Shown here: positions 4,176 through 43,626 of the stretch, one piece after another
How positions within the stretch are numbered: position 1 is the stretch's first letter
Layout of the letters: every line of letters starts with the position of its first letter
Virus record (IMG/VR): IMGVR_UViG_3300031951_000043
Length of the DNA stretch: 64,000 nucleotides
Strand: one strand, 5' to 3'
DNA from: an uncultured virus (IMG/VR IMGVR_UViG_3300031951_000043)
Taxonomy: Duplodnaviria > Heunggongvirae > Uroviricota > Caudoviricetes
Program-made: the position numbers and the translations under genes
Notes under the pieces: model-generated
Database searches by the model: none
Seen by the model: the letters and a program-made list of their open reading frames with translations, nothing else
Told to the model about the DNA's origin: nothing

Positions 4176-4179
4176 AAAA

Positions 4180-4339: not shown

Positions 4340-7300
4340 ATGATTAAGAAAATATTTTTATCATTAGCAATACTTGCTTCAATTTTAAGCAATGCTGCAA
4401 CATATTATGTTTCACCAAACGGAAATGATTCAAATAATGGGACTTCAATAACCACTCCGTGGAAAACAATAAGTAAAGTTAACACCAGACAATTAGTAGC
4501 TGGGGACCAAATTTTATTTGAACGAAATGGAACATACAGAGGTAATTTAACAATTAACTATTCGGGTACCGATGTCAACCCAATTCTAATTTCCACTTAT
4601 GGTAGTGGAAATAACCCCATATTACTTGGTTCACAATTAATTTCAAACTGGATATTACATCAAGGAAATATTTGGAAGACTCAAGTAAATGCAACACAAG
4701 TTGTTCATTTGTTCTTCAATGACAGTTTAATGCCAATTGCAAGATATCCAAATAATGGTTGGTTAAGAAATATACAAGGAACAAATTCTCAAATAACAGA
4801 TAATCAATTAACACAACCAGCGAATTATTGGAATGGTAGTACAATGGTTATTCGTAGTTCTTCTTGGAGTTATGATACAAGTAGAGTTTTATCATATAGT
4901 CCGGGGGTTATTAACTTTAGACCTATTAGTTATAACTTAGGAAACAGTACGTGGGGTTATTTTATCCGAAATAAATTTCAAGAATTAGATGCCCCCGGTG
5001 AATGGTTTTTTGATAAGACCATCAACACATTATATTTTTACTCCCCAACAGGAAACCCAAATTTAAACGCGATTGAAATAATAACAGCCAATCAATCAAC
5101 AAATGGTGTAGGAATAAGGGTTACTTGGCAAAGAAATAATATTATTATTGAAAATCTTACAATTAATAAGTATGGTTATGCTGGTGTTAGCACAAGCGGT
5201 ACATCTAATATAACTGTAAGAAATTGTAATATTAGTCAATGTGATCATGGTATGTGGTTATATGGTAATAATCAAATTATTAGAAATAATTTCATCACAA
5301 AATGTCCCCAAATGGGTTTAAATGCTGTTTCTGGTGGAAGCCCAATTAGTTATGGAAACAACAATACATTTGAAGATAATACCATCCAAAATTGTGCATT
5401 ATATCCCGGTCTTGGAAAAAGCTCATGGGGTTATTTCGGAATGACCGTCACTGGTTCCAATAATATAATAAGAAAAAATAATATTACAAATATTGGTTAT
5501 ATTGCATTATCTTTCGAATCAAACCCATTAATTGAAAATAACTTTATAAGTAATGCATGTTCAATTTTAAATGATGGTTCTGGTATTGCATTTGATAGAA
5601 CAAATGGTGCTGTTATTAGAAATAACATTGTTTTAAATACAATTGGTAATATTGAAAGTTGTGCAACAAATACAACCAACTGTGACCCAAAAGGTAAAGG
5701 AATATATTTTGGAAATGTTAGCAATAAAAATAATTTAGTTGATGGTAATACTGTCGCATATTGTAACGGTGCTGGTATTTGGTTTGATCATACTATGCTA
5801 TCAGAAGGTAATCAAATTATTAATAATACCTTATTTGGGAACAATTTATATCAATTAGGTATTTCAGATTTTTCAAACTATAATAGTCCCGGAGCAATTG
5901 CTCCTTATGCAGTTCCGGTGTATAGTAACCAACTTGTTAGAAATAATATTTTTTATTCAAATAACCAACAACAGAAAACCATGTACCACATAAATAAGTG
6001 GTATTCTGGTGTTGATTTTGCAAATTTTAATGAAAATAAATATATTAACCCTTGGGATACTGTTAGTATTCAAGTTTTTGATATAGCAAATAATGGTAAT
6101 TCTTTAAATTATTCATTAAATCAATGGAAAAATGTTAGAGGTGATGACTCTTTATCTACAAACCAACCTTATCTCCCTCAATCCGAATCATCTGATCATA
6201 TTTTGGTTTATAATAATCAAATAACAGAACAATCAATTAGTTTACCAAGTGGTACTTGGTCAGATTTAAACGGTAATTTATATAATTCTTCAATTAATAT
6301 ACCAGCATTTGAATCAAAACCTTTATTTAATTCATTATTACTTCCTCCACCACCCTCAACCCCAAGCACTATTGTTTCTTTATTGGTTCAAGCTAGTGTT
6401 AATTCAACAACACCATCAATTACACTTTCATGGATTAGTTATTCCACTGCAACAGGTTATTCTGTGTTCAGAAAATTAAAAAATGCAACATCTTGGGGAA
6501 GCGCAATAGCTACCTTAGGGGGTAGTGCAACTCAGTATGTTGATAATAACGTTTCTTTAAATACATATTATGAATATCGTGTTGTTAGAAACGCTTCTGT
6601 TGGTACTGCATATGGTTATGTTGCAACAGGTATTAATCTCAATACAATTGATTATAGAGGTAAGCTAATATTAGTTGTTGATAATACATTTACAAGTAGT
6701 TTATCTTCACAACTAACTCAATTACAAAATGATCTAAAATTAGATGGTTGGAATGTTATTAGAGTTGATGTTTCAAGAACAACAACACCAGCGTCAGTAA
6801 AATCTCAAATACAGACAATTTACAATACTGATCCAACTAATGTAAAATCAGTTTTATTATTTGGGCATGTTCCGGTTTATCGTTCTGGTAATATTGCACC
6901 AGATGGACATAGTTTAATTCCTTGGGCATGTGATTCCTATTATGGTGATATGAATGGTTCTTGGACAACACCTCCCACAGCATTACCTTCAGATTTGGAG
7001 TTACAAGTGGGGAGGATTGATTTATTTAATTTACCCGCGTTTGGACAAACAGAACAACAATTATTGTCAAATTATTTAACTAAATTACATCAATTTAAAA
7101 CAAAACAATTTACTCCTCAAAACAGAATGTTAATTCAGGATAATTTAACTTGGGTTAATAATCCACTAGCTGAAACTTCTTATAGAACTGGTGGTCCTTT
7201 AGTTGGTGAAGCAAATATTACAACAATACCAGCAAATAATCAACCAAATTTTGTATCAAGAATGTCTGATGGTTGGTTATGGGGTTATTTTTCTGGTGGT

Positions 7301-30945: not shown

Positions 30946-30960
30946 GTTTATTATTTCTTG

Positions 30961-31035
30961 TAGTTCCTTTCGGACTCGAACCGAAAACCTTTTCCACGTC
31001 AAGGAAACGCTCTGAACCAATTGAGCTAAGGAACT
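30961..31035 (-). tRNA. trnV: tRNA-Val(GAC)
   Basis: TTTCC-TTGACGT-GGAAA. Confidence 0.9.
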
Positions 31036-31164
31036 GTTAACAAAGGGGGTTAATGATAACCCCATTTGTTTTCTACCAACCTAAATCTTTCGAAACTTTG
31101 CCATGTCACCTGTAAATAGTGACACTTATTCAGAAGTTGGTGGACCCGGTGAGGCTCTTTTTTG

Positions 31165-31233
31165 TACTCCGTGAGAGATTCGAACTCTCAGCCTTCTCGT
31201 TAGGAGTGAGATGCTCATCCAGTTGAGACGGGG
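31165..31233 (-). pseudogene. trnR: Degenerate tRNA-Arg(CCT) with damaged 5' end
   Basis: CTCCTAA loop and T arm intact; 5' acceptor strand and positions 8-10 broken. Confidence 0.65.
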
Positions 31234-31239
31234 CATGAA

Positions 31240-31743
31240 CTATCTATATCTGTTCTCCACGTACCAATATATGGCTTTATTTTTCACCTCAACACGTTCC
31301 TTGACTATACCACGAACTCCAGATGAAGTAGCATATTTTCTTGATAGAGACTTGTCAGACAATATAAGTTGTATTACATATCCACTCCACACACTATCAT
31401 AGAGTCCGTCCGACTCCACAACTTCTTCCTCTTGTGTTGTTATTGGAGAGAATTCTGGAAGTCTACGAAACTCTTTCTCTGTTCCATCTTCCGCGTAGAA
31501 GCGGAAACCATCACTCTCGGCAATAATGGTCAAATCACCTTCCATAAGATCTATCAGACAAGATTGTATACCAACCCTGACCTTGTATAATCCAGATTCA
31601 AAATGCTTAGTGATTTCTCCTTTTCCATATTCAACTTCTTTCAATTGATGATCTATTACAACAATTCTTAGATCTTCACTAGGAGCTTTCACGCGCAACT
31701 CATACTCGACAATGGTTTTAGTTGGTATTGTGGTCACTCTCAT
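31240..31743 (-). CDS. Hypothetical protein, GC-richer than flanks
   Basis: 167-aa ORF. Confidence 0.65.
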   Translation of the reverse strand: MRVTTIPTKTIVEYELRVKAPSEDLRIVVIDHQLKEVEYGKGEITKHFESGLYKVRVGIQSCLIDLMEGDLTIIAESDGFRFYAEDGTEKEFRRLPEFSPITTQEEEVVESDGLYDSVWSGYVIQLILSDKSLSRKYATSSGVRGIVKERVEVKNKAIYWYVENRYR

Positions 31744-31807
31744 TTGGCAGCGTCTTTTATGATGTGCTTGACCTCTTCGCTGGAGAAGCCCATTATGTGC
31801 TTGAGTA

Positions 31808-33001
31808 TCATTTTTGTTTCAAATCTAAGTTAAGATCTTTAGCCGATTTCATCATCATAATTTCCATGAAATTTGCCGCCGCATTGCTAGAACCACTTGA
31901 GTTACCACTCATATATTGAGGAACAACATTTCCTTGATATTTCGAGAAGGCGTTTGCCCAATATTCTTGTGATTTAAGCCAAGCATCCAACTTTTGCTCA
32001 AGAGCGCCATTAGCAGACATTACAAGACGTTTCTTTTCAGCTTCACCTTGACCTTCAAGAATTTGTTTTTCTTTATTAAGTCTAGCAGTTTCAACATCAA
32101 GTTCAGCAACTCGTTTACGCGATTCAGCCTCAGTCACTTGTTTTGCTTTAATAACCTCTTGATCCCACTTAGCTTTAGCTGCTTCAGCTTCACCTTGTTT
32201 TGCGATGGTAATAGCATCTTGTTCGGCTTTTTTAGAATTTGCAATTGCCAATTGTACACTCATTAATGCTTGTTGTTGATTTTGAATTTGCTTTTCAACG
32301 GTCGCATCATATGTAATACCATTAATTGAAATATTATAGAGTCTAATTCCATATCCAGCAATTGGTGATTCTTCTTGTCGAATTGGTTGACCGGGAGTCT
32401 TTTCAACAATCTCAACTTTGGTTACTAATTTTTCCTCACCAGTCAATGGATCAGCTTCTTTAACCTCAACTTGTTTAGTTTTATATACACCTCTAGAAGC
32501 TTGATCTTCAATATAGAAAATCAAATCATTTCTTTTTTCCGCATACGACTCTTTAGATGTCATAAGCGGTCCAGTCATGTAAACTGATTTTTCAATGTTA
32601 GTTTTAATTAACTGATTCTCCAACGCTTCTTGCGAACCAAATGTTGAGTGTAATTTAATAATTTGTTCAGAAGATAAGGGAAGATCATAACGAACCGATC
32701 CTGAAATTGTTGCATGTCCACCATCATTCCATTTTACGGCAATTGATTTATCTGTTTCACCCTCCTCTTTTGGAGAAGAAAACCAAAATTGATTTGATTT
32801 ACGATAATGTGTTGCCCTACCAAATAATTGCCAAACCCAACCCGGTTCAGTATATGTATGAAGATTACCATCAAATGGGTCTTGAATAACAACAACTTCT
32901 CCAGCATCAACATCTTCCCAAATAAGGGGAACAAAGATTAGACCAAGAACAATAAATACGCCAATAACAATTGCACTAATAGATTTTTTAAAGTTTTCCA
33001 T
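31808..33001 (-). CDS. SPFH/band-7 domain membrane protein
   Basis: N-terminal TM, VDAGEVVV, Ala/Glu/Lys coiled coil. Confidence 0.85.
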   Translation of the reverse strand: MENFKKSISAIVIGVFIVLGLIFVPLIWEDVDAGEVVVIQDPFDGNLHTYTEPGWVWQLFGRATHYRKSNQFWFSSPKEEGETDKSIAVKWNDGGHATISGSVRYDLPLSSEQIIKLHSTFGSQEALENQLIKTNIEKSVYMTGPLMTSKESYAEKRNDLIFYIEDQASRGVYKTKQVEVKEADPLTGEEKLVTKVEIVEKTPGQPIRQEESPIAGYGIRLYNISINGITYDATVEKQIQNQQQALMSVQLAIANSKKAEQDAITIAKQGEAEAAKAKWDQEVIKAKQVTEAESRKRVAELDVETARLNKEKQILEGQGEAEKKRLVMSANGALEQKLDAWLKSQEYWANAFSKYQGNVVPQYMSGNSSGSSNAAANFMEIMMMKSAKDLNLDLKQK

Positions 33002-33007
33002 GTTTTT

Positions 33008-33274
33008 TTAAATTTTTGTTTTGTTTTTAATTTTATTAATTTTATTTACAGTTTGATTAACTTCATCATTCACCACATTATACTTCTCAACCGCCTTATC
33101 AACTTTTTCTTCCAGTTCATCTATCGTTGATGAGTGTTGGATTTTTTCTTTATTTTTCTTTTTAAGAAACCAAAAAAATTCTAATTTGGGAATAAAAAGA
33201 GGTAGAATTATTTGTGTTATAATTGTTAGTATGCTTATAACTGTTAATAAAAATATTATAATTATTTTAGCCAT
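33008..33274 (-). CDS. Small membrane protein
   Basis: TM helix plus coiled coil. Confidence 0.65.
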   Translation of the reverse strand: MAKIIIIFLLTVISILTIITQIILPLFIPKLEFFWFLKKKNKEKIQHSSTIDELEEKVDKAVEKYNVVNDEVNQTVNKINKIKNKTKI

Positions 33275-33467
33275 TTTGGTTTTTAAATTTAAAAATTATA
33301 TCATTTATATCATTTCTTATTGATTCCATATCATCTATGTCAAGATAAAATGAAAATGAATCATCACCTTGACTACAGGTTAACCATATTTCATCATCAC
33401 CACCTTGAATAAAAAATTCCAAGTCTTTATCTCCTTGTGAAAATTTATATGTTTTTATTGTTTTCAT
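33267..33467 (-). CDS. Hypothetical protein
   Basis: Likely start MKTIK. Confidence 0.55.
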   Translation of the reverse strand: MKTIKTYKFSQGDKDLEFFIQGGDDEIWLTCSQGDDSFSFYLDIDDMESIRNDINDIIFKFKNQNG

Positions 33468-33508
33468 TTTATAGTACAAATATAGTATATGTTTTTAACA
33501 TAAACAAA

Positions 33509-33694
33509 TCAAATGAAAATTTCACCAAATAAGGAAATATATTCATTTTTTGGTATTTTACAATAAACATCACCAACCCAAAAAAATACATCGTCACCAA
33601 TTTCATTCGGTTCGGTGATATTCCATTTTTTAACAATATTGACAGGTATTTTGTCGTAATCTAAATTAGGGAAAGCAACATGTACGTAGTCCAT
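33509..33694 (-). CDS. Hypothetical protein
   Basis: ORF downstream of TAnnTTTG. Confidence 0.55.
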   Translation of the reverse strand: MDYVHVAFPNLDYDKIPVNIVKKWNITEPNEIGDDVFFWVGDVYCKIPKNEYISLFGEIFI

Positions 33695-33773
33695 TTTTTT
33701 TTAGTTTACACAAAGATAATAACAAATATTTAAATTTCCAATAACTGATAATATTTATTTTAAAAGTTGGTAT

Positions 33774-34559
33774 ATGAGAAATCTAATCAAAAAAGTTTTG
33801 CGTGAATTTGTATTAAAAGAAGCGGAAGAGACAGACCACGCAAAATGTCGTTATGTTAATAGAGTTGCGAATGAAAGAAATCATAAAACAACAAATGTTA
33901 AGGACAAAATTGGTAAAGAAGGAATTGAAAACATTAAATTTATCATCGAACTTGTTAAAAAAATAGATTTTCCAAAAAATATCGATATTGCAATTAATTT
34001 AGCTTATTCACCATCAAGAGATGTTAACAATCCAGAAGGTTTTGAAAACGCAAAAGGATTTTATTTTAATGACCCTAATGATAATTGTACTAAAAAAGAA
34101 AATATTGAACCTAGCTGGGGACATTATTTGTGGTTAATAATAAGAGATAATTCTATCACAACAATAATGATTCATAGAACCAAACCAAAAGATTTAAGAG
34201 AGGTTAATATAGATAGATTAATAAATAATTTAAATAACTATTTTGGACTTAATATTAAAGAAAAAGAACTTTCGTCGGCTGAAAATTTAAAACAAATAGA
34301 TTTAACAAATGAGAGACTTTTCTTTAAGATGATTAGTAAACCAGAAAAAAAATCTGAGGAATCTCCTTTAAAAAATGAAGAAATACTTCTTGTTAAACAA
34401 AAAAAATATGTTATTGATAAAATTAAAAAAACAATTCATCCAAAAAATAAACCAAAAGAAATACAGAAAATAGAAGAATTTATCAATTTAATTTTAAATT
34501 TAGAACCTTTTACCCCTGAAGATGAGAAAGCTATTGAATACTTAATTTCTTTGATTTGA
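33774..34559 (+). CDS. Hypothetical late protein (LIKKVLRE leader)
   Basis: ATATTTAT upstream. Confidence 0.72.
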   Translation: MRNLIKKVLREFVLKEAEETDHAKCRYVNRVANERNHKTTNVKDKIGKEGIENIKFIIELVKKIDFPKNIDIAINLAYSPSRDVNNPEGFENAKGFYFNDPNDNCTKKENIEPSWGHYLWLIIRDNSITTIMIHRTKPKDLREVNIDRLINNLNNYFGLNIKEKELSSAENLKQIDLTNERLFFKMISKPEKKSEESPLKNEEILLVKQKKYVIDKIKKTIHPKNKPKEIQKIEEFINLILNLEPFTPEDEKAIEYLISLI

Positions 34560-34841
34560 TTTTATAATTAATCTGTCATAATGCGTGAAATAACCCCGTT
34601 TATTAGCCTCATCTAATATTTCATCAGTTGTTGGTCTTGGTTGTTTTTCCAAATAATATTTGATATTTTTTTCATCCATATATTCTCTAATGGTTTCTTC
34701 AACATTACTAAATAAGCGATAAATATTATCAGCTAAAATATCAGCATCAACCAATCCGGTTACATTTTCCATCATATCATCAAAAACAAAATTTGATGAT
34801 TCATCCTTTTTAATAATCAAGATATAATAGTCGTATTTCAT
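34542..34841 (-). CDS. Hypothetical protein
   Basis: ORF coupled to upstream gene. Confidence 0.6.
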   Translation of the reverse strand: MKYDYYILIIKKDESSNFVFDDMMENVTGLVDADILADNIYRLFSNVEETIREYMDEKNIKYYLEKQPRPTTDEILDEANKRGYFTHYDRLIIKSNQRN

Positions 34842-35293
34842 CTGCAATGATAATCCGCCGCTTTAGTTGCGATTTGAATATTTGGTTTTACATTAACTTG
34901 ATACCCCAATGAATTCGCCCACCCCTTTGTTGCACTGATTAATTGATTACTTTTATAAAATTCATCCTCATTATAATCCATATCTAATTCAAGTTTTAGA
35001 CTGACATTAACTTTGTTTTTAAACCATTCCGCAATTTCAATCGTGCTTTCAGCTTCCTTCCAAAGTCTAGTCCATAAATCATTAATTCTATTGATTCTTT
35101 CTTTTGTGAAAATATAATGGACACCCCTAGTACCATAACGATAGGCGATAACGGAAACATAAACGGTTTCATTTGACACGTTTTGTGAATCAGTACCGAT
35201 ATGGATTTTTACATCAGGATTTTCCCTGATAACCTCAAGAGTATGTTTTACAACATCTACTGGAGTTCCATCTAATTTTCTAAACACTTTCAT
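34838..35293 (-). CDS. Ribonuclease H-like YkuK (DUF458) family protein
   Basis: IHIGTDSQ..RLWKE..ELDMDYN..KAAD. Confidence 0.82.
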   Translation of the reverse strand: MKVFRKLDGTPVDVVKHTLEVIRENPDVKIHIGTDSQNVSNETVYVSVIAYRYGTRGVHYIFTKERINRINDLWTRLWKEAESTIEIAEWFKNKVNVSLKLELDMDYNEDEFYKSNQLISATKGWANSLGYQVNVKPNIQIATKAADYHCR

Positions 35294-35305
35294 TTTATAG
35301 TTATT

Positions 35306-35662
35306 TTATTCGTCTACACTGATGAGGGGGAATTCAATTTTAAGTCTATAATGAATAAAATCATTCATATCTTCCACTAAATCAAAATATTTTCTATAAG
35401 ACTCACCATTTGACATTTTTATTTTTAAAAATGGTTTGTAATAAACAACATAATCCTCAATATATAAGTTTTTGTTTTTAAGAATCTCTTCTTCTGTTAT
35501 AAAAAAAGTTCCATTGTAATACCAATCAGCGTAATAAAATCCTTCTTTTCTTTCTTTACAAAATAAACTTTTTTTTCTGCGATTTTGCCAAACAAATTTA
35601 TCATTTTCTATTTTTTCAAATTTTCTAATACTACAAATTTGTTTGATATTAATTTCTTCCAT
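35306..35662 (-). CDS. Hypothetical protein
   Basis: ORF downstream of TAnnTTTG. Confidence 0.65.
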   Translation of the reverse strand: MEEINIKQICSIRKFEKIENDKFVWQNRRKKSLFCKERKEGFYYADWYYNGTFFITEEEILKNKNLYIEDYVVYYKPFLKIKMSNGESYRKYFDLVEDMNDFIHYRLKIEFPLISVDE

Positions 35663-35807
35663 TTTTAAAAGTTTGGTACAAAGATATGAAAAGTTTTATG
35701 AAAAAAAAAATTGCAACGATTTTAGCCTACGTTAATATTTTGTGGGAAGAGCTTATCGTTATTAAGTTTCGCTTATTATACCAACACAATTTTTAATTCA
35801 TAATACA

Positions 35808-35883
35808 TGGTGGACCGGAAGGGATTCGAACCCTCATCCTCCTGAGTGCAAATCAGGTGCTCATCCAGTTGAGCTACCAGCCC
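35808..35883 (-). tRNA. trnA: tRNA-Ala(TGC)
   Basis: CCTGA-TTTGCAC-TCAGG; G3:U70; CCA. Confidence 0.92.
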
Positions 35884-35992
35884 ATGTTCCCGTTTTTCTT
35901 CATCATTTAGTTCACCACCCAGATGAACAAGTGGTGGATTTTGCTTTTGGAAGTCTGCATTACAGACCGTCACCACGGGAAAACCAACGCAG

Positions 35993-36067
35993 TAGTTCCT
36001 GTGTGACTTGAACACACGCCCTTTCGAATGTAAATCGAACGCTCTAAACCAACTGAGCTAAGGAACT
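35993..36067 (-). tRNA. trnV: tRNA-Val(TAC)
   Basis: TTCGA-TTTACAT-TCGAA. Confidence 0.9.
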
Positions 36068-36075
36068 ATATTTCG

Positions 36076-36147
36076 CACCCCCTGAAGAATTCGAATCCTC
36101 ACCAACGATGTTGGAGATCGTTACTCTACCAATTGAGCTAAAGGGGT
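36076..36147 (-). tRNA. trnW: tRNA-Trp(CCA)
   Basis: ACGAT-CTCCAAC-ATCGT. Confidence 0.88.
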
Positions 36148-36155
36148 ATGTATTT

Positions 36156-36233
36156 TGGGTGAATAACGAGACTCGAACTCGCAAAAATCCGGGACCACAA
36201 TCCGGAGTGTATACCAATTCCACCATATTCACC
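36156..36233 (-). tRNA. trnH: tRNA-His(GTG)
   Basis: TTGTGGT loop; G-1 extended acceptor stem. Confidence 0.88.
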
Positions 36234-36241
36234 ATAATTCG

Positions 36242-36320
36242 TACTCCCGGTGAGAATCGAACTCACACCCTTTCGGATCTGTTCCTAAAACAGACGCGGC
36301 TACCGTTACGCCACAGGAGT
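36242..36320 (-). tRNA. trnL: tRNA-Leu(TAG)
   Basis: TCTGT-TTTAGGA-ACAGA; variable arm. Confidence 0.9.
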
Positions 36321-36371
36321 GTTTAACATCACAAAGATATAACTTTATTTTCTTATCTCCAAATTAAACTG

Positions 36372-36443
36372 AGGTCGAAGTGAGAATCGAACTCACGTAA
36401 GAAGTTTTGCAGACTTCCGCCTAAACCACTCGACCATTCGACC
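36372..36443 (-). tRNA. trnC: tRNA-Cys(GCA)
   Basis: GAAGT-CTGCAAA-ACTTC; U73. Confidence 0.92.
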
Positions 36444-36629
36444 TTACTTTTCACCTAATTTTCTAATAATACCTCCCTTAGCTTCATACCAAGTACCCTG
36501 ATAATTAAATTCAAATCCGGTATCTCTCATACAAATACCCATAAATTCACCGTCTCTTGTTTTTAAACCAACCCCTGAAAAAACATCTTCAAGAATTATT
36601 TCACCGTTTTCATCTGTTGTTAATTTCAT
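36444..36629 (-). CDS. Small hypothetical protein within the tRNA array
   Basis: Start MKLTTD downstream of tRNA-Arg. Confidence 0.65.
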   Translation of the reverse strand: MKLTTDENGEIILEDVFSGVGLKTRDGEFMGICMRDTGFEFNYQGTWYEAKGGIIRKLGEK

Positions 36630-36646
36630 AATTTTAATTTTTTTTG

Positions 36647-36718
36647 TATCCCCCGAAGGATTCGAACCCTCACCAACTGAGTCGAAATCAGGTATGCTAT
36701 CCATTACACTAGAGGGAC
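36647..36718 (-). tRNA. trnR: tRNA-Arg(TCG)
   Basis: TTTCGAC loop. Confidence 0.9.
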
Positions 36719-36978
36719 TTTTTCTCTTTTCTTTTTTTCCATTCTACAGCAAGTGCTGCTCCAATAAAAGCGCCTAACATTGCAGCACCAAATAAACGTG
36801 TATCATTTACATAATTTACAGTGGTGAAAGCACCAAATAAAACAATTAATGCTGACCATATTCCGGATGCGATAGTTTTTCTTTCCTCCACTTTAATAAA
36901 ATATAAAGTCCATGCAATATCAGCTAAAATCATGGAAAACATAACCAGCAAAAATTTTAATTCAAAGGGTATATTCAT
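36709..36978 (-). CDS. Small multi-pass membrane protein
   Basis: Three hydrophobic helices. Confidence 0.7.
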   Translation of the reverse strand: MNIPFELKFLLVMFSMILADIAWTLYFIKVEERKTIASGIWSALIVLFGAFTTVNYVNDTRLFGAAMLGAFIGAALAVEWKKRKEKKSL

Positions 36979-37412
36979 CTTTTTAATAATTTATCACATT
37001 TATTTTTCCAATTTGATGAGAGACATGAAATTGGTGTTACTTTTGTAAGTTGATTAATTAATCTAATTTCTTGTGGATTATCATCCAAATGAAATACAAA
37101 ATCATTTCCATTCTTTTTAAACCACCAAGCCTTTGGGTCGTGGTTTGTAAAAATCACTCGTTCCCTTGGGATTCCTAAATCTTTCGCCACCAAAAACAAA
37201 TCTTCTTCATTTGACCACCAAAGAACATCATCGTCTCTTTTAAAAGTTTCATCATCAGGATATTTCTTTCTGAAAAATTCTTTTGGATTTTCCGGTCTTG
37301 AGGTAACAATCCATACCTCAATGTTGGAATCTTCAATTAATTCCTTACAATAATTTTGTATGAACAGCGAATGACCAAGACAATCATCAAAATCAAAACT
37401 TACTTTTTTCAT
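36975..37412 (-). CDS. HAD-superfamily hydrolase
   Basis: VSFDFDDCL, IVTSR, HLDDN. Confidence 0.8.
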   Translation of the reverse strand: MKKVSFDFDDCLGHSLFIQNYCKELIEDSNIEVWIVTSRPENPKEFFRKKYPDDETFKRDDDVLWWSNEEDLFLVAKDLGIPRERVIFTNHDPKAWWFKKNGNDFVFHLDDNPQEIRLINQLTKVTPISCLSSNWKNKCDKLLKR

Positions 37413-37711
37413 GCTAACCAACGAATTAAATATTTTGCTTGCATTTGAGATGTAAAATCAGCCTCACCCATATCTGTAACAGGAATTTCAAAACTTATCA
37501 CTTCAGTATCCTCACCACCATCTCCCAAAAATAATGAATAATAAGCAACACCGAGTCTGATTTTATCAAAAAACGCTATTGGATTGTTTTTATATAGCAT
37601 TTTTTTAATTTCGTTTTTTCTTATTGTATTTAATTTTTTATCCATTTTATCTAAAGTTATTTTATCAACGCTATCCATTGCTTCTTTATATAATTCTTCG
37701 TCTGTCTTCAT
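37409..37711 (-). CDS. Hypothetical protein
   Basis: ORF with ATGA overlaps. Confidence 0.65.
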   Translation of the reverse strand: MKTDEELYKEAMDSVDKITLDKMDKKLNTIRKNEIKKMLYKNNPIAFFDKIRLGVAYYSLFLGDGGEDTEVISFEIPVTDMGEADFTSQMQAKYLIRWLA

Positions 37712-39225
37712 CGTATTAAATTAATATTACCAATTTTATTAATTAAGTTATTAGCTATAATTCCGCTAAATTTATAAACATAAACACCATTCTGACAATT
37801 AAGCCCATCCCATGATTCGTTTTGATTGGTAAATTCATAAATTTTCTCACCCCAACTATTATAAATTTGCATTTTAAAATTTTCAATTTTTGAAATTGTT
37901 GTTACTTTAAATGAATCATTTATATTATCATAATCGGGTGAAAATGTGTTAGGAATATAAATATCTCCACAAATTTCTGAATAAATTTCTAATGTTGTTA
38001 AATCGCCAAAACAACCAAATTCATTTATCTCATAAACACTTAATATGTTTTCAAAATTAGAAATGTTTGGTAAATTTATTGTTATAGTATTTTGTGTCAA
38101 ATTTAATGTATCTTGATTTAAAATCCAAATATATGAAGAATTTATATTACCAGTTGTTAAAAATTGTAAAGTTCTATCGAATTCTGAGCAATTTACAAAA
38201 CTATTTTCACCGATAATAATAACATCTTCAGGATTTGGATTCACAACAACTAATATCGAATCGTTGTTTCTACAACCAAAAGAATCAATAAATGTATATT
38301 CAACCCAATTTGTTCCAAATTGTGGTAAATAATTAGGACCAATATTCCAAGTACCACCAATAGGGAATGCTTGCATTTGAACCGGTGAATCATTAAAACA
38401 TAGTGTGTCAACAGGATTAATTAATACTACAGGTAATTGATTTACGTTTACAGTAAAAATAGTTGTATCTATACAATTATTAATTGTTTCTTCAATAATA
38501 CTAATTTGTTGAGTCCCTATATTATTCCAAATATTTATTTGGGGATTACCTGTATAAAAAATTGAGTTATTTGTTGGATTTGCTAATTCATGAATTGTCG
38601 TATCCCCAAGACATACGGTTTGGACCAATGGGGTTATTGGATTACTTTCAAAGTCTAAAGGAATATTGGTACCATTAAATAAATTAAATGGTGATAGATT
38701 ACAGTTATTATTTCCCCAAGATCCCCAAGTACCGTCAGCACCAGCGGTTATTTGAATTATAATGTCCTCAGAGGAACATGTCTCAACAACTGTGGTTGTA
38801 AAACAAAAATTCCATGTACAATTTCCAAAATCACCCCAATCATTACCGGGATTTCCATCAATAACACCACCTTGATTTGTTTCAAAAAACCAACCCGGTC
38901 CAGCAGAAATACCCGTTGATGATGATGTTACCGTACCAGAAATCCAAACCCAATTACCAGAACCACCATTACAATTGGTAGGTGATGCTTGCGGAATAGG
39001 GGGTGTTAAAGAAGGACTTAGATTAATTTCAAATCCCTCAACCCAATTTGAACTAACGTTCAAACCGTTCCAACCATTCATTGTATAACACACATTTAAA
39101 ACAGTTCCACTAGCGTATTGACCATTAATTGGGGTTGGGTTTATTGAAAAACTTTCAATCCCATTACATTGATTAAACGCTAAATTACTAATTAAAGTAA
39201 AAATTATTAATAATACTTTTTTCAT
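37708..39225 (-). CDS. Secreted protein with gliding-motility-associated (T9SS type B) C-terminal domain
   Basis: Signal peptide; YIPNTFSPD.D..ND.F..IYNSWGEKIY..WDG..GVYVY..G.INLIR. Confidence 0.85.
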   Translation of the reverse strand: MKKVLLIIFTLISNLAFNQCNGIESFSINPTPINGQYASGTVLNVCYTMNGWNGLNVSSNWVEGFEINLSPSLTPPIPQASPTNCNGGSGNWVWISGTVTSSSTGISAGPGWFFETNQGGVIDGNPGNDWGDFGNCTWNFCFTTTVVETCSSEDIIIQITAGADGTWGSWGNNNCNLSPFNLFNGTNIPLDFESNPITPLVQTVCLGDTTIHELANPTNNSIFYTGNPQINIWNNIGTQQISIIEETINNCIDTTIFTVNVNQLPVVLINPVDTLCFNDSPVQMQAFPIGGTWNIGPNYLPQFGTNWVEYTFIDSFGCRNNDSILVVVNPNPEDVIIIGENSFVNCSEFDRTLQFLTTGNINSSYIWILNQDTLNLTQNTITINLPNISNFENILSVYEINEFGCFGDLTTLEIYSEICGDIYIPNTFSPDYDNINDSFKVTTISKIENFKMQIYNSWGEKIYEFTNQNESWDGLNCQNGVYVYKFSGIIANNLINKIGNINLIR

Positions 39226-39391
39226 TTTTTATAAAAAATTAAGAGTTTAAACCACCACTTCCACCACATGAATTTTAATGTTAAAAGACCTTCTGGGTCA
39301 TGGTAGTATATGATTGTTGGAATTAAAGGTTTATGGTCCTCGATAATAAATCGCTTTGACCTATCTGTTCTAATTTTCATGTTTGTTAATT

Positions 39392-39664
39392 TTATCGTTT
39401 ACAATAATTCCATATTTCTTCCGCTGTATTCCATTCCGAACCAACGTTTAACATACCGATTGGGTCTTCTTTAAACCACATTCGTTCTTTCCATTCACCA
39501 GTACCATTTAATCTAAAATAACTTATAATTGAGAGTGAGATATTACTTGGTTCTAGTTCATTTGGGTCATTTGCGGAATTACCAATCCAATGGTCGATAA
39601 ATCCATCTTTACAATAAATTCGTCGAAATTTAACCCACCCTTCTTGTAGTTTTTCGGTTTTCAT
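39392..39664 (-). CDS. Hypothetical protein
   Basis: ORF. Confidence 0.6.
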   Translation of the reverse strand: MKTEKLQEGWVKFRRIYCKDGFIDHWIGNSANDPNELEPSNISLSIISYFRLNGTGEWKERMWFKEDPIGMLNVGSEWNTAEEIWNYCKR

Positions 39665-39918
39665 ATAATTTCTAATGATATTAAACTCATAAATCTATCA
39701 TGTGAGTCTAAAGAATAATAAATTCTAACTTTTTGACCTTGTTCACTTATTAATTCTTTAAAATGTTTATGAATTAAAATTTTAACATCTTTATTTATCA
39801 CCATAAATAAATGATTTTCTTTAAAATCAAGTTCAGATGGAATTTCTGTGTAATAAACATTTTTAATAATCAACTCAATAAAAGGGAATTTGTTTGTGTA
39901 TGATGTTTCAATATTCAT
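39661..39918 (-). CDS. Hypothetical protein
   Basis: ORF. Confidence 0.55.
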   Translation of the reverse strand: MNIETSYTNKFPFIELIIKNVYYTEIPSELDFKENHLFMVINKDVKILIHKHFKELISEQGQKVRIYYSLDSHDRFMSLISLEII

Positions 39919-39934
39919 TATTATTAATTTTTAG

Positions 39935-40008
39935 TTGTCCCACTCTGACTCGAACAGAGAACCTCCACATTATCAGTGTGACGATCTAACCAATTGATCT
40001 ATGAGACA
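39935..40008 (-). tRNA. trnI: tRNA-Ile(GAT)
   Basis: CTGATAA loop; TGTCTCA/TGGGACA acceptor. Confidence 0.9.
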
Positions 40009-40250
40009 ATAAGTGGTTATTTTATCGCTTTTATCCCTTGATCAGAGGGGAAGTGCTCGTAAAATAACCAAAACCAAACTTCAAATATCATTATATGTTC
40101 TATATAAAATTCGACAAAAGATAAACCCTAAAAAGCAACAAATCAAATTTATAATGGTAACATCATAAGATTGGGGATATAATATTTGTGTATATACACC
40201 AGCTAGGAATAAGGTAATGTAAGATAATACTTTAAGTACGTGTTTCATTT

Positions 40251-40499
40251 TTATATAAAATAAGGTCCGTAGATAACACCCCCTGACTCAACAACACCCT
40301 TTTCCATTTCCCAAGCTTTTTTTAATGCTTCTTTAAGGGTATATACAGGACTAGCACCATTACCCCTAATTAACATGTGTGCGTGTTTGAAAACTCTTTT
40401 CTTTGAGATTTCTTTGGGAAAAATGATTAAGCTATTATCGCTATTTTTTTGATTTAAATAACGAGTTAACATTCCTTTTTTTGGTTCCATATCATTCAT
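40251..40499 (-). CDS. Hypothetical protein
   Basis: ORF; LKEALKKAW motif. Confidence 0.6.
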   Translation of the reverse strand: MNDMEPKKGMLTRYLNQKNSDNSLIIFPKEISKKRVFKHAHMLIRGNGASPVYTLKEALKKAWEMEKGVVESGGVIYGPYFI

Positions 40500-40646
40500 T
40501 GTTTTTTTCTTTATCTTTAATTTCTTCTATACGTCTGATGGTTGAGGGTTTAGTACATCTTCCACCGTAACCACAAAGATACGAAAGATTTCTGGTTTTT
40601 CTACGCACAATTTTACCTTGTTTACTCATTTTGATTTTTTTATATG

Positions 40647-40718
40647 CGGTCTATGACGGGTTCGATCCGTCTACTCTACCGTGACAGGGTAGGATGATAG
40701 CCATTTCACCAATAGACC
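40647..40718 (-). tRNA. trnD: tRNA-Asp(GTC)
   Basis: CTACC-CTGTCAC-GGTAG. Confidence 0.9.
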
Positions 40719-40729
40719 AAAAGAAATTG

Positions 40730-40801
40730 AGGACTCGGAGAATTACGATATCTCGACCTAAAAGTTAACAGCTTTTTGCTCTGCCCCTGAGCTACGAGTC
40801 C
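40730..40801 (-). tRNA. trnN: tRNA-Asn(GTT)
   Basis: AAAAG-CTGTTAA-CTTTT; variant T loop. Confidence 0.85.
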
Positions 40802-40807
40802 TTATTG

Positions 40808-40880
40808 TGGTACTTCGTGGTTCCGAGCCACGCTCCTCCCGTCTTCAGCGGGATGCTTTCACCAGATTAGCTTAAGTACC
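40808..40880 (-). tRNA. trnF: tRNA-Phe(GAA)
   Basis: TCCCG-CTGAAGA-CGGGA. Confidence 0.85.
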
Positions 40881-40935
40881 GTTATCAGTTACAAAACCTC
40901 TCAAATTAGGAACTTCACCGATGTAGTTTTTTTAG

Positions 40936-41019
40936 TGGAAGTAGTAAGACTCGAACTTACGAACCCCTTTCGGAGAAGTGATTTACAGTCACTTGGAATT
41001 GCCGCTATCCGATACTTCC
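40936..41019 (-). tRNA. trnY: tRNA-Tyr(GTA)
   Basis: AGTGA-CTGTAAA-TCACT; variable arm. Confidence 0.9.
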
Positions 41020-41022
41020 ATT

Positions 41023-41087
41023 TGCTGTCTCTCCATGCTGTCAATGCGGATGTTTTATCATGAATTTAGGTACCTCGCATTGCTCCC
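41023..41087 (-). ncRNA. Small structured RNA ending TGACAG-N3-GGAGAGAC (copy 1)
   Basis: Same 3' module at 41962-42017. Confidence 0.45.
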
Positions 41088-41093
41088 ATATTG

Positions 41094-41165
41094 TAGTCCC
41101 GACGAGAATCGAACTCGCATTACCGGAGTGAAAATCCGGGTTCCGAACCATTAGAAGACGGGACC
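41094..41165 (-). tRNA. trnE: tRNA-Glu(TTC)
   Basis: CCGGA-TTTTCAC-TCCGG. Confidence 0.9.
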
Positions 41166-41189
41166 ATTTAAAATTTTAATGAACTAAAG

Positions 41190-41263
41190 CTGTCCCGGAA
41201 GGGGTCGAACCTTCAAACTTCCCCTTCAAAGGGGGATGACTTTGCCAATTTGTCTACAGGACA
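41190..41263 (-). tRNA. trnQ: tRNA-Gln(TTG)
   Basis: TCCCC-CTTTGAA-GGGGA; U1-A72. Confidence 0.88.
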
Positions 41264-41268
41264 ATAAG

Positions 41269-41402
41269 CGGGGGAGGTTGGATTCGCACCAACAATCGTT
41301 ACATTTCAGAGTAATTGCTTTACTGTTTCGAAGTATCTCATATTCTCACCACTCGGACGAGGGAAAATGAAATGAGTTTTTCTTTTTATTAGCTTCTCCC
41401 CC
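41269..41402 (-). ncRNA. tRNA-like RNA with ~60-nt insertion in the D loop and an 8-nt anticodon loop
   Basis: GGGGGAG/CTCCCCC acceptor; GTTGG-TGCGAAT-CCAAC T arm. Confidence 0.65.
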
Positions 41403-41414
41403 AAGAAATTATAG

Positions 41415-41497
41415 TGGATGTTGACGGAATCGAACCGCGTTTCCAAACAGCACCCCCAACCTCATCATGAACGGTCGGTCAAGGTTTAGCAACACCC
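41415..41497 (-). ncRNA. Miniature RNA resembling the tRNA-like domain of tmRNA
   Basis: GGGTGTT/AACATCC-A with G3:U70; unpaired D region ending TTGAC; GGTTCGATTCC T loop; no anticodon arm. Confidence 0.6.
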
Positions 41498-41508
41498 AAA
41501 AAAGTTAG

Positions 41509-41582
41509 TTCTCCCAGCGAGACTCGAACTCACAACTCCCATATTAAAAGTATGGTACTCTAACCAATTGAGTTACAGGAGA
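41509..41582 (-). tRNA. trnK: tRNA-Lys(TTT)
   Basis: CCATA-CTTTTAA-TATGG. Confidence 0.9.
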
Positions 41583-41587
41583 TTATG

Positions 41588-41721
41588 TGATGAGTGATGG
41601 ATTCGAACCACCATAAGCTGCTTCGTTTAGGATATCCTCTAAGCAACAGCGGGATATGTATAGTGTTGGGTAACTATATCACTAATATCCACCGCAACCC
41701 GTTCCCTTGGGCTATCTCATC
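41588..41721 (-). ncRNA. tRNA-like RNA with enlarged anticodon and variable arms
   Basis: GATGAG/CTCATC acceptor, GCCC..GGGT D arm, GGTTCGAATCC T arm; 134 nt. Confidence 0.65.
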
Positions 41722-41726
41722 AAATT

Positions 41727-41872
41727 GAGAGGACACCGATACCTCCTCTCTGGGTGGGTCTAATTTCGAATTCTTTTATGACTTGTTCTGAAAGTCGCCA
41801 ACATACTCATCATTTCTGATTTAGTCATTGCACGTCCCACTTAACTTTAAACGCGGTCGGTTTTAAGGTATG
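41727..41872 (-). ncRNA. Putative structured RNA between tRNA-like units
   Basis: Nested complementary segments and a terminal GAGAGGA/TCCTCTC hairpin. Confidence 0.4.
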
Positions 41873-41879
41873 TATTGTG

Positions 41880-41955
41880 TCGAGGTGAGAGGATTTGAAC
41901 CTCCATGATATCTTCGCCCCAAACGAAGAGACTTAGCCAATTAGTCCACACCTCG
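41880..41955 (-). tRNA. trnP: tRNA-Pro(TGG)
   Basis: CTTCG-TTTGGGG-CGAAG. Confidence 0.9.
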
Positions 41956-41961: not shown

Positions 41962-42017
41962 AATCGTCTCTCCGATCTGTCACACTTATTCATTGTTACG
42001 TCGATTGACACTAAGTG
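41962..42017 (-). ncRNA. Small structured RNA ending TGACAG-N3-GGAGAGAC (copy 2)
   Basis: CACTTA/TAAGTG stem, then the shared module. Confidence 0.45.
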
Positions 42018-42097
42018 TTTAAATTCAATCGAACATGATAATAATCAAATTATTATTATCTAAATTTCTTGGTATTACAATATGTCAACGAACGTCA

Positions 42098-42129
42098 CAA
42101 AGTTATGTCTTATTCTTCAAACTACCAAA
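42098..42129 (-). promoter_or_regulatory. Bacteroidota primary-sigma promoter for the tRNA array
   Basis: TTTG-N20-TAACTTTG on minus strand. Confidence 0.7.
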
Positions 42130-42141
42130 ACTTTTTTGGTA

Positions 42142-42176
42142 TAAAATTTAAAACCCCGGATTTTTTGTCCGGGGTT
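42142..42176 (-). terminator. Attenuator terminator hairpin AACCCCGGA-CAAAAAA-TCCGGGGTT plus U-rich tail
   Basis: 9-bp stem; 5' arm also complementary to 42210-42218. Confidence 0.75.
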
Positions 42177-42197
42177 ACATTTTCTTTGTGTTAAAAA

Positions 42198-42296
42198 TTA
42201 TTTCACAAAAACCCCGGAATACATAATGGGAGCATAAAACCAATCACACTGATTTGGTTTTACTACCTCAAGATTATGTTTACGTAGATTGTTCAT
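42198..42296 (-). CDS. Putative attenuator leader peptide MNNLRKHNLEVVKPNQCDWFYAPIMYSGVFVK
   Basis: ATG-TAA, 32 codons, 19 of 20 amino acids; overlaps the antiterminator arm; ATATTTAT at 42312-42319. Confidence 0.75.
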   Translation of the reverse strand: MNNLRKHNLEVVKPNQCDWFYAPIMYSGVFVK

Positions 42297-42343
42297 TTAA
42301 AATAATTTTCAATAAATATATACAAGTTTTGAAAAAAGTCAAA

Positions 42344-42745
42344 TCATTCTAATTTTTTTTCTAAATTTAAATAATCGATTGCTTTTTGTAATAATTTTAC
42401 ATCATCATTAAATCTACCCAAACCCAAGTTGCAGTTGTTGCATATATAACCCCTAAACGTATCAGTAAAATGACAATGATCTAAAACCCATGATGTTGTA
42501 TGTTTATCACATATTGGACAATTTCCGGATGGTGGTGGTGAATACTTAATTTTTAAATGTTTTCTTATTTCAGCTAATTTTTGATTGCAACTTTTGCATG
42601 TATTTTTTCTTCCAGCATCGATTGTTGAGAAGAATGGAAATTCGTCAATTTGTTTTTCAATATTGCAATTTCTGCATGTTTTTGTTTCTCCTGAAATAAC
42701 TGGTTTTATGTTTTCTTCAGGTTCAAATAAATTTAATTGATTCAT
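42344..42745 (-). CDS. Endonuclease VII-type HNH protein
   Basis: CPIC..VLDHCH..RGYICNNCNLGLGRFND. Confidence 0.88.
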   Translation of the reverse strand: MNQLNLFEPEENIKPVISGETKTCRNCNIEKQIDEFPFFSTIDAGRKNTCKSCNQKLAEIRKHLKIKYSPPPSGNCPICDKHTTSWVLDHCHFTDTFRGYICNNCNLGLGRFNDDVKLLQKAIDYLNLEKKLE

Positions 42746-42807
42746 CAAATTTTATTTGAACATAATGAGGTTCTGTGTTAAAGTAAACTATTCATATATT
42801 TATGGTT

Positions 42808-43626
42808 ATGAAAAAGATTAAATTAACAGAATCGGATTTATATAGAATTGTTAGAAAGGTTCTTCTTGAGCAAGATGAAAAAAAGAAAAGTTTTACATTT
42901 TCTCCGGGTTCATTTGAATCTCTTATAACATCATCATCAGGTGAAAGATTTGTTAAACATCTTAATAACAAATATGATAGGGTTATTGTTAATGAAGAGT
43001 TGGATTTAAGTGAAACACCAATTCAATCCTTGCCGGATAATCTTCATGTTGAGGGAAATTTGGATTTAGAAGGAACGCAAATTCAATCCTTACCGGATAA
43101 TCTTCATGTTGGGGGGAATTTGTTTTTATATGGATGCAAAAATCTTAAATCCTTACCGGATAATCTTTATGTTGGGGGAAATTTGGAGTTAGATGGAATA
43201 CCAATTCAATACTTAGGGAATAATATTCATGTTAAGGGAAATTTGGAGTTAGATGGAATACCAATTCAATCCTTACCGGATAATCTTCATGTTGGGGGAG
43301 ATTTGAGTTTAGTAGGAACACCAATTCAATCCTTACCGGATAATCTTCATGTTGGGGGATATTTGGATTTATATGGAACACCAATTCAATCCTTACCGGA
43401 TAATCTTCATGTTGGGGGAAGTTTGTATTTAAGAGGAACACCAATTCAATCCTTACCGGATAATCTTCATGTTGAGGGAGATTTGTTTTTAGGTAAAACA
43501 CCAATTCAATCCTTACCGAATAATCTTGACGTTAAGGGGACAATTTATATTAAAGGAACACCATTAAATGATAATGATGAATTGGTTAAGAAATATGAAG
43601 AAAAATATAGAATTATTAGAGTTTAA
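42808..43626 (+). CDS. LRR protein with shared leader (about 9 repeats)
   Basis: 60-nt tandem repeats with core CCAATTCAATCCTTACCGGATAATCTTCATGTTG. Confidence 0.92.
   Translation: MKKIKLTESDLYRIVRKVLLEQDEKKKSFTFSPGSFESLITSSSGERFVKHLNNKYDRVIVNEELDLSETPIQSLPDNLHVEGNLDLEGTQIQSLPDNLHVGGNLFLYGCKNLKSLPDNLYVGGNLELDGIPIQYLGNNIHVKGNLELDGIPIQSLPDNLHVGGDLSLVGTPIQSLPDNLHVGGYLDLYGTPIQSLPDNLHVGGSLYLRGTPIQSLPDNLHVEGDLFLGKTPIQSLPNNLDVKGTIYIKGTPLNDNDELVKKYEEKYRIIRV

Follow-up and report, generated by a model that had tools for sequence, protein, structure and literature searches.

A candidate leader-peptide attenuator, matched in amino acid composition to the downstream tRNA genes, at the head of a phage tRNA array

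Can transcription of a phage tRNA array be set by how well the codons of its own tRNAs are being read? The purpose of such arrays is presented as debated, between codon compensation and escape from tRNA-cleaving defences, in the parts of the literature drawn on here (PMC10264068, PMC11464382, PMC11555353). The question is raised by a 64,000-nt stretch of DNA (hereafter the window) from an uncultured Caudoviricetes virus, corresponding to bases 72-64071 of the 256,029-bp IMG/VR record IMGVR_UViG_3300031951_000043 (completeness estimate 85%, genome G+C content 29.9%). On its minus strand, 200-340 nt 5' of the first gene of a tRNA array, lies a block consisting of a sigma-A-type promoter, an open reading frame (ORF) of 32 codons, a hairpin within the ORF, a 9-nt arm, the stop codon and an intrinsic terminator. 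An initial annotation, made by a model that saw only the letters, had read this block as an attenuator of the trp/his type whose leader peptide samples many amino acids, and all of its coordinates were verified on the window sequence. Our analysis favours, with a probability of roughly 0.55, the reading that a ribosome on the leader ORF gates transcriptional read-through into the tRNA array and that the 16-amino-acid composition of the sensing zone is adaptive. That the block is a translation-coupled transcription switch of some kind is considered likely.

Alternative pairings in the leader transcript

The terminator-like hairpin at 42176-42152 on the minus strand has the form AACCCCGGA-N7-TCCGGGGTT, followed by TTAAATTTTA, with a 9-bp stem that contains six G-C pairs, a 7-nt loop and the tail TTTTAAATTTT, in which the U-run is interrupted. 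Its 3' arm (arm 4) recurs as codons 27-29 of the ORF (arm 2), and this copy can pair with the 5' arm (arm 3), as the initial annotation had proposed (Table 1). In a 71-nt context, the 2:3 fold reaches -18.1 kcal/mol and the 3:4 fold, the terminator, -20.4 kcal/mol; the two are mutually exclusive, and the former is extended by a helper helix between TTTGTG (42209-42204) and CACAAA (42190-42185). When folding was followed in the growing chain, 2:3 was the minimum-energy fold until arm 4 emerged and then competed with 3:4 at near-equal energy, which bears out the proposed pairing scheme. The 9-mer TCCGGGGTT and its complement are found only at this locus in the 256-kb genome. A third copy of an arm was present at one of the 13 strict terminators of the genome, namely that of the leader, and at none of 117 strict terminators in 1.32 Mb of other phage loci. 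A plain insulating terminator would be free of competing upstream pairings; here, arm 2 competes. The idea that arm 2 is the decayed 3' half of an older terminator was rejected because no convincing 5' arm lies upstream.

The leader stop codon follows 9 nt past arm 2. A ribosome covers approximately 15 nt 3' of its P site, and with this footprint stalls with codons 2-22 in the A site leave arm 2 free, while stalls at codons 23-24 cover 1-4 nt of it. The initial annotation had cautioned that stalls at codons 22-24 may still cover the arm. This geometry would fit a switch in which stalling leads to read-through and full translation to termination. The further hairpin described within codons 12-21 was found again and could possibly serve as an RNA-polymerase pause hairpin.

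The ORF is preceded by a predicted promoter, P1. The motif ATATTTAT at 42319-42312 (minus strand) is contained in the TATATTTA element of P1; it occurs 40 times in the window against 16.8 expected, is present within 60 nt upstream of 45 of the 205 long ORFs, and in 22 of 46 occurrences ends 13-18 nt before an ATG, the gap at the leader ORF being 15 nt. A sigma-70 scan likewise flags 42342-42315. Bacteroidota sigma-A promoters have the consensus TTTG at -33. Their -7 box is TAnnTTTG, located at -12 to -5, according to the portion of the source used here (PMC9723704). As far as the letters tell, ATATTTAT fits a variant of this box, so that the label "late motif" given to it in the initial annotation is unfounded; read as a -7 box at -12 to -5, it predicts a transcription start near 42308. 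The start context of the leader ORF scores 3.35 bits, which is the 55th percentile of the 205 long ORFs and lies in the top 5% of 5000 random ATGs; the start is gene-like, and the ORF is predicted to be translated. It is annotated as a gene on three contigs, on the record only as itself. The region 42130-42345 gave no non-tRNA Rfam match at E values up to 1, amino-acid leader families and T-box included, and the leader gave no Pfam match.

The mechanism that we propose begins with RNA that would start at P1 approximately 12 nt before the ATG of the 32-codon ORF. In the growing RNA, arm 2 would pair with arm 3, and this antiterminator would block the 3:4 pairing. A ribosome close behind the polymerase would reach the end of the ORF and cover arm 2, whereupon 3:4 would form and transcription would stop near 42145. 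A ribosome delayed in codons 2-22, or up to 24, would leave arm 2 free, the antiterminator would form, and the polymerase would read through past the second promoter, P2, into tRNA-Pro and beyond. Slow reading of any of the 16 codon kinds of the array would thereby give more tRNA, Met, Ser, Thr and Gly not being sensed. With no ribosome on the RNA, 2:3 would form first, so that read-through would be the default. The array would be transcribed from P2 anyway, with the switch supplying additional transcription from P1 whenever codons are read slowly. In this scheme we infer that the ORF is translated, that ribosome and polymerase are coupled, that the polymerase pauses at the mid-ORF hairpin and that transcription ends at the terminator hairpin, and we likewise infer the physiological signal.

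Table 1. Features of the leader locus and its surroundings, with positions numbered on the window.
Feature	Position	Strand	Basis or remark
EndoVII gene (Endonuclease_7 family)	42748-42344	-	Pfam E 9e-16
Predicted promoter P1: TTTG (42343-42340), 19 nt, TATATTTA (42320-42313)	42313..42343	-	sequence; -7-box-like motif
Leader ORF, 32 codons and stop: MNNLRKHNLEVVKPNQCDWFYAPIMYSGVFVK	42198..42296	-	ATG at 42296, stop 42200-42198
Proposed sensing zone, codons 2-24, 16 different amino acids	42225..42293	-	composition versus array
Mid-ORF hairpin AAAACCAAATCAGTGTGATTGGTTTT, codons 12-21	42236..42261	-	-8.5 kcal/mol
Arm 2 TCCGGGGTT, codons 27-29 (TCC GGG GTT)	42210..42218	-	antiterminator 5' strand
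Arm 3 AACCCCGGA	42168..42176	-	common to antiterminator and terminator
Arm 4 TCCGGGGTT (42160-42152) and T-rich tail TTTTAAATTTT	42143..42160	-	
Promoter P2, host sigma-A type TTTGGTAGTTTGAAGAATAAGACATAACTTTG, TTTG-N20-TAACTTTG	42098..42129	-	between terminator and tRNA-Pro
tRNA-Pro, first tRNA of the array	41955	-	
Co-oriented tRNA array, protein genes between blocks	30960..41955	-	17 tRNAs
Second TTTG-N-TAnnTTTG match	36363-36332	-	inside second tRNA cluster
Plus-strand tRNA cluster: Ile(tat), Met, Ser, Thr, Gly	2111-4254	+	ARAGORN

Leader composition, the tRNA array and analogous leaders

ARAGORN detects 22 tRNAs, all of them within the window, and no further one in the 256,029-bp genome. 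The 17 on the minus strand follow each other as Pro Lys Gln Glu Tyr Phe Asn Asp / Ile / Arg Cys Leu His Trp Val Ala / Val, and their identities are exactly 16 amino acids (P K Q E Y F N D I R C L H W V A); all but one of these 17 calls are borne out by Rfam. The tRNAs for Met, Ser, Thr and Gly, which the array lacks, are located in the plus-strand cluster together with Ile(tat), in agreement with the initial annotation. Between 42400 and 30000, the only strong terminator-like hairpins on the minus strand are those at 42176-42152 and 31063-31046. A weak tRNA-like gene with anticodon CCU (Arg) at 31165-31234 (minus strand) has an Rfam score of 29.3 bits, which is at the gathering score, shows several stem mismatches, has no ARAGORN call and may be a decaying tRNA-Arg; since it would be another Arg, the 16-amino-acid set of the array is unaltered.

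Codons 2-24 of the leader use exactly these 16 amino acids, with one to three codons for each, and the ARAGORN set thus upholds the central observation of the initial annotation. So does the distribution of the other residues: Thr is absent, Ser and Gly occur only inside the arm, and Met, apart from the start codon, only at codon 25. M25, S27 and G28, the residues outside the array set, are confined to codons 25-28, where a stalled ribosome would itself cover the arm, and the sensing zone is without the common residues S, T and G, yet contains the rare W, C, H and Q. When the genome is translated in six frames, no other run without M, S, T, G and stops contains all 16 amino acids, and the leader is the sole such ORF among 1257 ATG ORFs of 20-80 amino acids. 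Among 2,000,000 random 31-mers, a run of this type arises 21 times with protein composition and 76 times with six-frame composition, and shuffling residues 2-32 of the leader gives a complete run in 2753 of 200,000 trials (1.4%). Second-order Markov sequence contains 89 such runs in 66.4 Mb, or 0.69 per genome, and 1.32 Mb of real DNA from other phage loci holds two, in line with the model. Since about 0.7 runs are expected per genome, the surprise lies in the location of the run, not in its existence: the expectation is 5.2e-4 per 390-nt co-oriented spacer, and approximately 1.2e-5 if Met is required just before it. For the two six-fold amino acids, the zone uses the Leu codons CTA and CTT and the Arg codon CGT, from the rare CTN and CGN boxes for which the array has Leu(tag) and Arg(tcg), while TTA makes up 59% of Leu and AGA 71% of Arg codons in the genome; the joint probability of this Leu and Arg codon-box match, taken from genome usage, is 0.016.

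The heads of tRNA blocks were also scanned in other phage records, and two loci, L044 and L284, unrelated in sequence to the window leader, have the same build and a leader composition that follows their own array. L044, a contig of 62 kb from another phage, carries the same 202-aa neighbour gene as the window, at 60% identity. Its 34-codon ORF MQRIGQHIENMNLWFSVKPYGACDRSRALKLIIS comprises 19 different amino acids, only Thr being missing, and codons 2-24 alone hold all 19; of 783,801 distinct stop-free 23-residue windows in all the DNA analysed, 15 reach 19 different residues, and five of the 15 are from this ORF. Arm 2 of L044, TCGGGCTCT (codons 26-29), pairs with AGAGCCCGA, which overlaps the 5' arm of the terminator AGCCCGAC-N8-GTCGGGCT, itself followed by TTTTTT. 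The 2:3 fold (-20.1 kcal/mol) forms first and stands against a 3:4 fold of -20.2 kcal/mol, and a mid-ORF hairpin analogous to that of the window leader is present. Forty nucleotides downstream begin 20 tRNAs for 18 amino acids, without Ile and Thr and with three of anticodon CAT, and after another 4.6 kb there are tRNAs for Leu, Ile, Thr and Arg. BLASTP gives no alignment between the window and L044 leaders, which have no detectable similarity, and their shared V-K-P..C-D is therefore not evidence of homology.

In L284, a 259-kb record, a sigma-70 promoter (TTGACA-N17-TATAAT), a GAGG Shine-Dalgarno sequence and the ORF MTRKQRNNQKP are followed by a structured stretch in which GCCTGGGG can pair with the CCCCAGGC of the terminator, and then by this 15-bp terminator. 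The downstream tRNAs are Lys(ctt), Gln(ctg), Gln(ttg), Lys(ctt), Arg(ccg), Asn(gtt) and Gln(ttg), and seven of the eight K/Q/R/N codons of the ORF are cognate to them at the anticodon level (AAG twice, CAA, CAG, CGG, AAT twice). A run of this type is expected at 4.5e-4 per 450 nt under a Markov model, with two other such runs in 96 kb of strand of that record. Neither the L044 nor the L284 leader matches an Rfam leader family.

An association test supports the link between the additional arm and tRNA genes. In 1.73 Mb of phage DNA with 145 distinct strict terminators, the 5' arm had an upstream complement of 7-9 nt at three of the four terminators located at most 300 nt before a co-oriented tRNA, against none of the 141 others (Fisher p = 8e-6; 2.9e-4 without the window locus). 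The fourth tRNA-proximal terminator, L288, has no extra arm. A search of related phage tRNA arrays for a leader with an arm had been put forward in the initial annotation; none was found in relatives, and the leaders of the two unrelated analogues track the content of their arrays. L044 and L284 support a class of device, not orthology, and the device heads some tRNA arrays, not all.

Other array heads were noted as well. A 14-codon ORF in L291 before a Thr-Pro-Ser-Leu-His-Asn block, with 8 of 13 residues in the set, was set aside because it has no terminator. In two related phages, at L281 (~1030-1110) and L291 (reverse, ~7260-7337), the 202-aa gene and the first tRNA are separated by a 21-bp inverted repeat, TTGACAAACAACCTCTTGGAG ... 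CTTCAAGAGGTTTGTTGTCAA, which encloses a TATATTTAAT-like box; these heads have neither a leader ORF nor a T-run, so that array heads in this group differ in design.

Points against the attenuator and competing explanations

The trp/his-type reading draws on the geometry, the exclusive folds, the gene-like start, the composition and the analogues. The main doubts about it are the missing orthologous conservation, the single codons for most amino acids, the position of P2, the 11-kb spread of the array and the post hoc nature of the match.

Conservation of the ORF and its pairing in relatives, on which the initial annotation had staked its proposal, was absent: no relative keeps the ORF or the arms, orthologous conservation and covariation were not observed, and the two nearest relatives are without the whole block. 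The exact terminator pattern occurs at two loci in viral contigs, both 100% identical copies. A search of the leader with blastn and tblastn against 129 loci (seven of them copies of the leader locus) and the genome returned only itself and promoter-like AT-rich matches, and the peptide is an orphan with no homologue among 1.84 billion protein representatives. A 22-mer of tRNA-Pro was found at five loci, none syntenic, the 90-aa protein of the block has matches only in the same strain, and GenBank phages gave only distant matches to the 202-aa neighbour gene or, for the analogues, tRNA-level matches. Of 80 loci with the 202-aa gene, only L006 is close. It is syntenic at ~80% nucleotide identity and is without window 42327-39230, that is the leader, terminator, P2, nine tRNAs and three small ORFs; the ATG of its CHU_C protein lies 25 nt past the EndoVII stop, and only Arg, Cys and Leu tRNAs are left. 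With the EndoVII protein as query, 40 loci were found in viral contigs and 80 in metagenome contigs; L201 and L202 are both without the leader. The L201 EndoVII has 98% amino acid identity, the contig is without 42310-35305, and the same point joins a 151-aa gene at window 35293, so that the missing 7 kb includes all 16 tRNAs between.

Three relatives share one left edge with three contents, namely 16 tRNAs in the window, the CHU_C gene and three tRNAs in L006, and no tRNA in L201 (edges compared: window 42310-35305, L006 7996-8002, L201 ~880-932). Since they differ past the EndoVII (homing-endonuclease-like) gene, this is a hypervariable cassette zone with its left edge at ~42310-42327.

The initial annotation had cautioned that host-type promoters at 42129-42098 (P2) and 36363-36332 can drive the array independently, and both are present as TTTG-N-TAnnTTTG matches. 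Because P2 is placed past the terminator and ahead of the tRNAs, the array can be transcribed without the switch. Transcription was assessed on assembled Logan contigs from three freshwater metatranscriptome runs (X11, X12 and X13); such contigs cannot show transcript ends or levels, and DNA may contaminate RNA libraries. The contigs from X11 and X13 reach from the tRNAs to 42166 and 42179, show nothing over the ORF and leave 42210-42317 uncovered. An X12 contig spans 42294-41478; it begins where the ORF does, bridges the terminator and extends to tRNA-Pro and tRNA-Lys, and is consistent with a read-through transcript from P1, as a weak hint. The EndoVII gene has a depth of 0-4 in the RNA runs. 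A promoter in the 3' end of the ORF (TaTG-N21-TAATTTTT), considered for the contig ends at 42166 and 42179, is only a 10/12 match in AT-rich DNA and was not adopted.

An extended form of the promoter motif, TTTGGnAGTTTGAA-N9-11-TAnCTTTG, heads tRNA blocks of the genome at 2067-2098 (plus), 3439-3470 (plus), 36363-36332 (minus) and 42129-42098 (minus). It was found at 70 viral-contig loci, nine of which have a tRNA at most 200 nt downstream (four of the nine in the same strain), and an exact-copy test revealed no other triple arm among the 70. In the DNA run X14, a variant strain is represented by a contig that skips 41985-42061 (77 nt, P2 to tRNA-Pro) and carries C>T at 42096; at 42196-42298 this run has a gap and is uninformative.

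Further points concern the array. The 16 tRNA identities span 11 kb with intervening protein genes and the internal promoter match, and tRNA-Phe(gaa) at 40807-40880 (minus strand) is called by ARAGORN only, with a cloverleaf that is regular except for an unusual T loop, and is not reported by the Rfam tRNA model even at E 10. At the head of the plus-strand cluster, a promoter of the same type comes straight after a 64-aa ORF, with neither a leader nor a terminator. Another 66 starts of tRNA blocks in other phages (G001-G007 regions) showed no other clear leader, and three of the seven L284 tRNAs are ARAGORN-only. As for the leader, P23 and I24 sit where a stalled ribosome partly covers arm 2, and 9 of the 16 amino acids occur once in the zone; known attenuators repeat their regulatory codons. 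Under strict wobble rules, 19 of the 23 zone codons are readable by array tRNAs against 18.9 expected, which is no enrichment. The composition match is moreover post hoc and comes from a very large scan, and its odds alone would not carry the hypothesis.

The codon-level results bear on a first alternative, rather improbable in our judgement, according to which the attenuator is real but generic: read-through would be tied to the ribosome-polymerase distance or to overall translation capacity, and the 16-amino-acid match would be a by-product of a varied short sequence constrained by RNA structure. All of the structural evidence, from the folds and the arm to the terminator association, applies to such a device, for which a strict codon-anticodon match at chance level and mostly single amino acids would be natural; 1.4% of 23-residue windows hold exactly 16 different residues and ~1.7% at least 16. 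What it leaves to chance is that these are the 16 of the array, as in only 21-76 of 2,000,000 random peptides of leader length, that the three non-array residues fall only in the last eight codons (the 1.4% by permutation), and that Leu and Arg are spelled in the codon boxes of the array's own tRNAs (0.016). Nor would it account for the shift of leader content with the array in L044, where Gly, Ser and Met, whose tRNAs belong to that array, are present, and in L284, where only K, Q, R and N are.

A second alternative, which we regard as slightly less probable still, is an ordinary terminator combined with chance. The hairpin at 42176-42152 would end transcription from EndoVII or P1 and insulate P2, the ORF would be untranslated or meaningless, arm 2 would be a recombination relic at the edge of a hypervariable cassette, and the composition would be coincidental. 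The left edge of the variable region at ~42310-42327 suits this explanation, as do the missing conservation, the orphan peptide and the ~0.7 runs expected per genome, and the layout of a terminator followed by a P2-type promoter occurs at two other loci of the 70 (L155 and L195). It demands a series of coincidences, however: a GC-rich 9-mer restricted to the locus, a third arm absent from 141 other terminators, an ORF that covers the arm and stops 9 nt later, a gene-like start, and a run within the spacer (5.2e-4). The same build recurs, with unrelated sequences, before the tRNA arrays of L044 and L284.

That promoter, ORF and terminator form a unit for the expression of a small protein, as this layout and the gene calls on three contigs would allow, or that an RNA-binding protein or an RNA sets the 2:3/3:4 switch with the ORF incidental, alternative pairing being also a mark of protein- and RNA-controlled attenuators, is very unlikely given a peptide with neither a homologue nor a Pfam match, a leader outside any Rfam family, and a composition match and an arm 2 inside the ORF before the stop that would both be left unexplained.

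Relation to known systems and further observations on the genome

The attenuator reading places the leader beside the amino-acid operon leaders, such as ilvGMEDA (Ile/Leu/Val), thr (Thr/Ile), trpL, hisL and pheL, of which Rfam holds Leu, His, Thr and Trp families. Like these, it has a promoter-proximal short ORF and antiterminator and terminator hairpins that exclude each other; the regulated genes are preceded by an intrinsic terminator, and the stop codon lies where a ribosome that finishes translation would mask the antiterminator strand. Unlike these, it would regulate tRNAs instead of biosynthetic enzymes, it samples 16 amino acids mostly once, whereas theirs are runs of one to three, and it has a second promoter past the terminator and no Rfam leader match. 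It also has no evident 1:2 "anti-antiterminator", so that the absence of translation would give read-through. The pheST (pheM) leader attenuator of Escherichia coli, which controls phenylalanyl-tRNA synthetase, likewise applies leader-peptide attenuation to a gene of the translation apparatus and senses charged-tRNA supply; in contrast to the phage leader, it senses one amino acid, regulates a synthetase and is cellular. T-box riboswitches share the choice between terminator and antiterminator set by tRNA status, but bind uncharged tRNA via a specifier codon and a T-box bulge and have no ORF, and the leader has no T-box match; to our knowledge, T-boxes are not known in Bacteroidota. In a flavobacterium, leader-peptide attenuation is described as likely in the part of the source drawn on (PMC9723704). 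No account of leader-peptide attenuation of tRNA genes was found in a literature search to which most subscription journals were closed.

More tentatively, and with more doubt than belief, the leader could be a tRNA gauge for the whole array that tests each of the 16 identities with one codon; it would detect loss of any of them by starvation or by host tRNA-cleaving defences and answer with P1-driven replacement tRNAs even if P2 is shut off. Codon-matched leader attenuators of this kind, at the heads of phage tRNA blocks, would then form a class that is widespread and undescribed. That anticodon nucleases are the purpose of the switch is speculation. If the attenuator reading is true, a leader ORF that gauges decoding speed for the tRNAs of its array would be the first known regulatory logic for such arrays, phages would sense tRNA supply instead of making tRNAs blindly, and trp/his-type attenuation would reach beyond enzymes, to tRNA genes and to an "inventory" peptide of many amino acids.

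The middle of the array contains, at 37708-39225 (minus strand), the gene for a 505-aa protein that bears a CHU_C type IX secretion signal domain. Together with the promoter type and distant matches to Bacteroides phages, this domain suggests a Bacteroidota host. In the record G004, which carries 50 tRNAs, ARAGORN calls two tRNAs with anticodon CTA, at L285 1325-1399 and L286 15764-15837 (labelled Pyl, amber-reading), along with several odd tRNA-like genes, and these may be suppressor tRNAs. The genome further contains a multi-copy protein family of ~20-residue "TPIQSLPDNLHVGG" repeats, encoded on the plus strand at 42802-43626, 3-551 and 564-1043 and at many other genome sites, with only a weak Pfam hint (pAdhesive_15); the first 400 nt of L201 match at least 10 genome sites at 75-92% identity.

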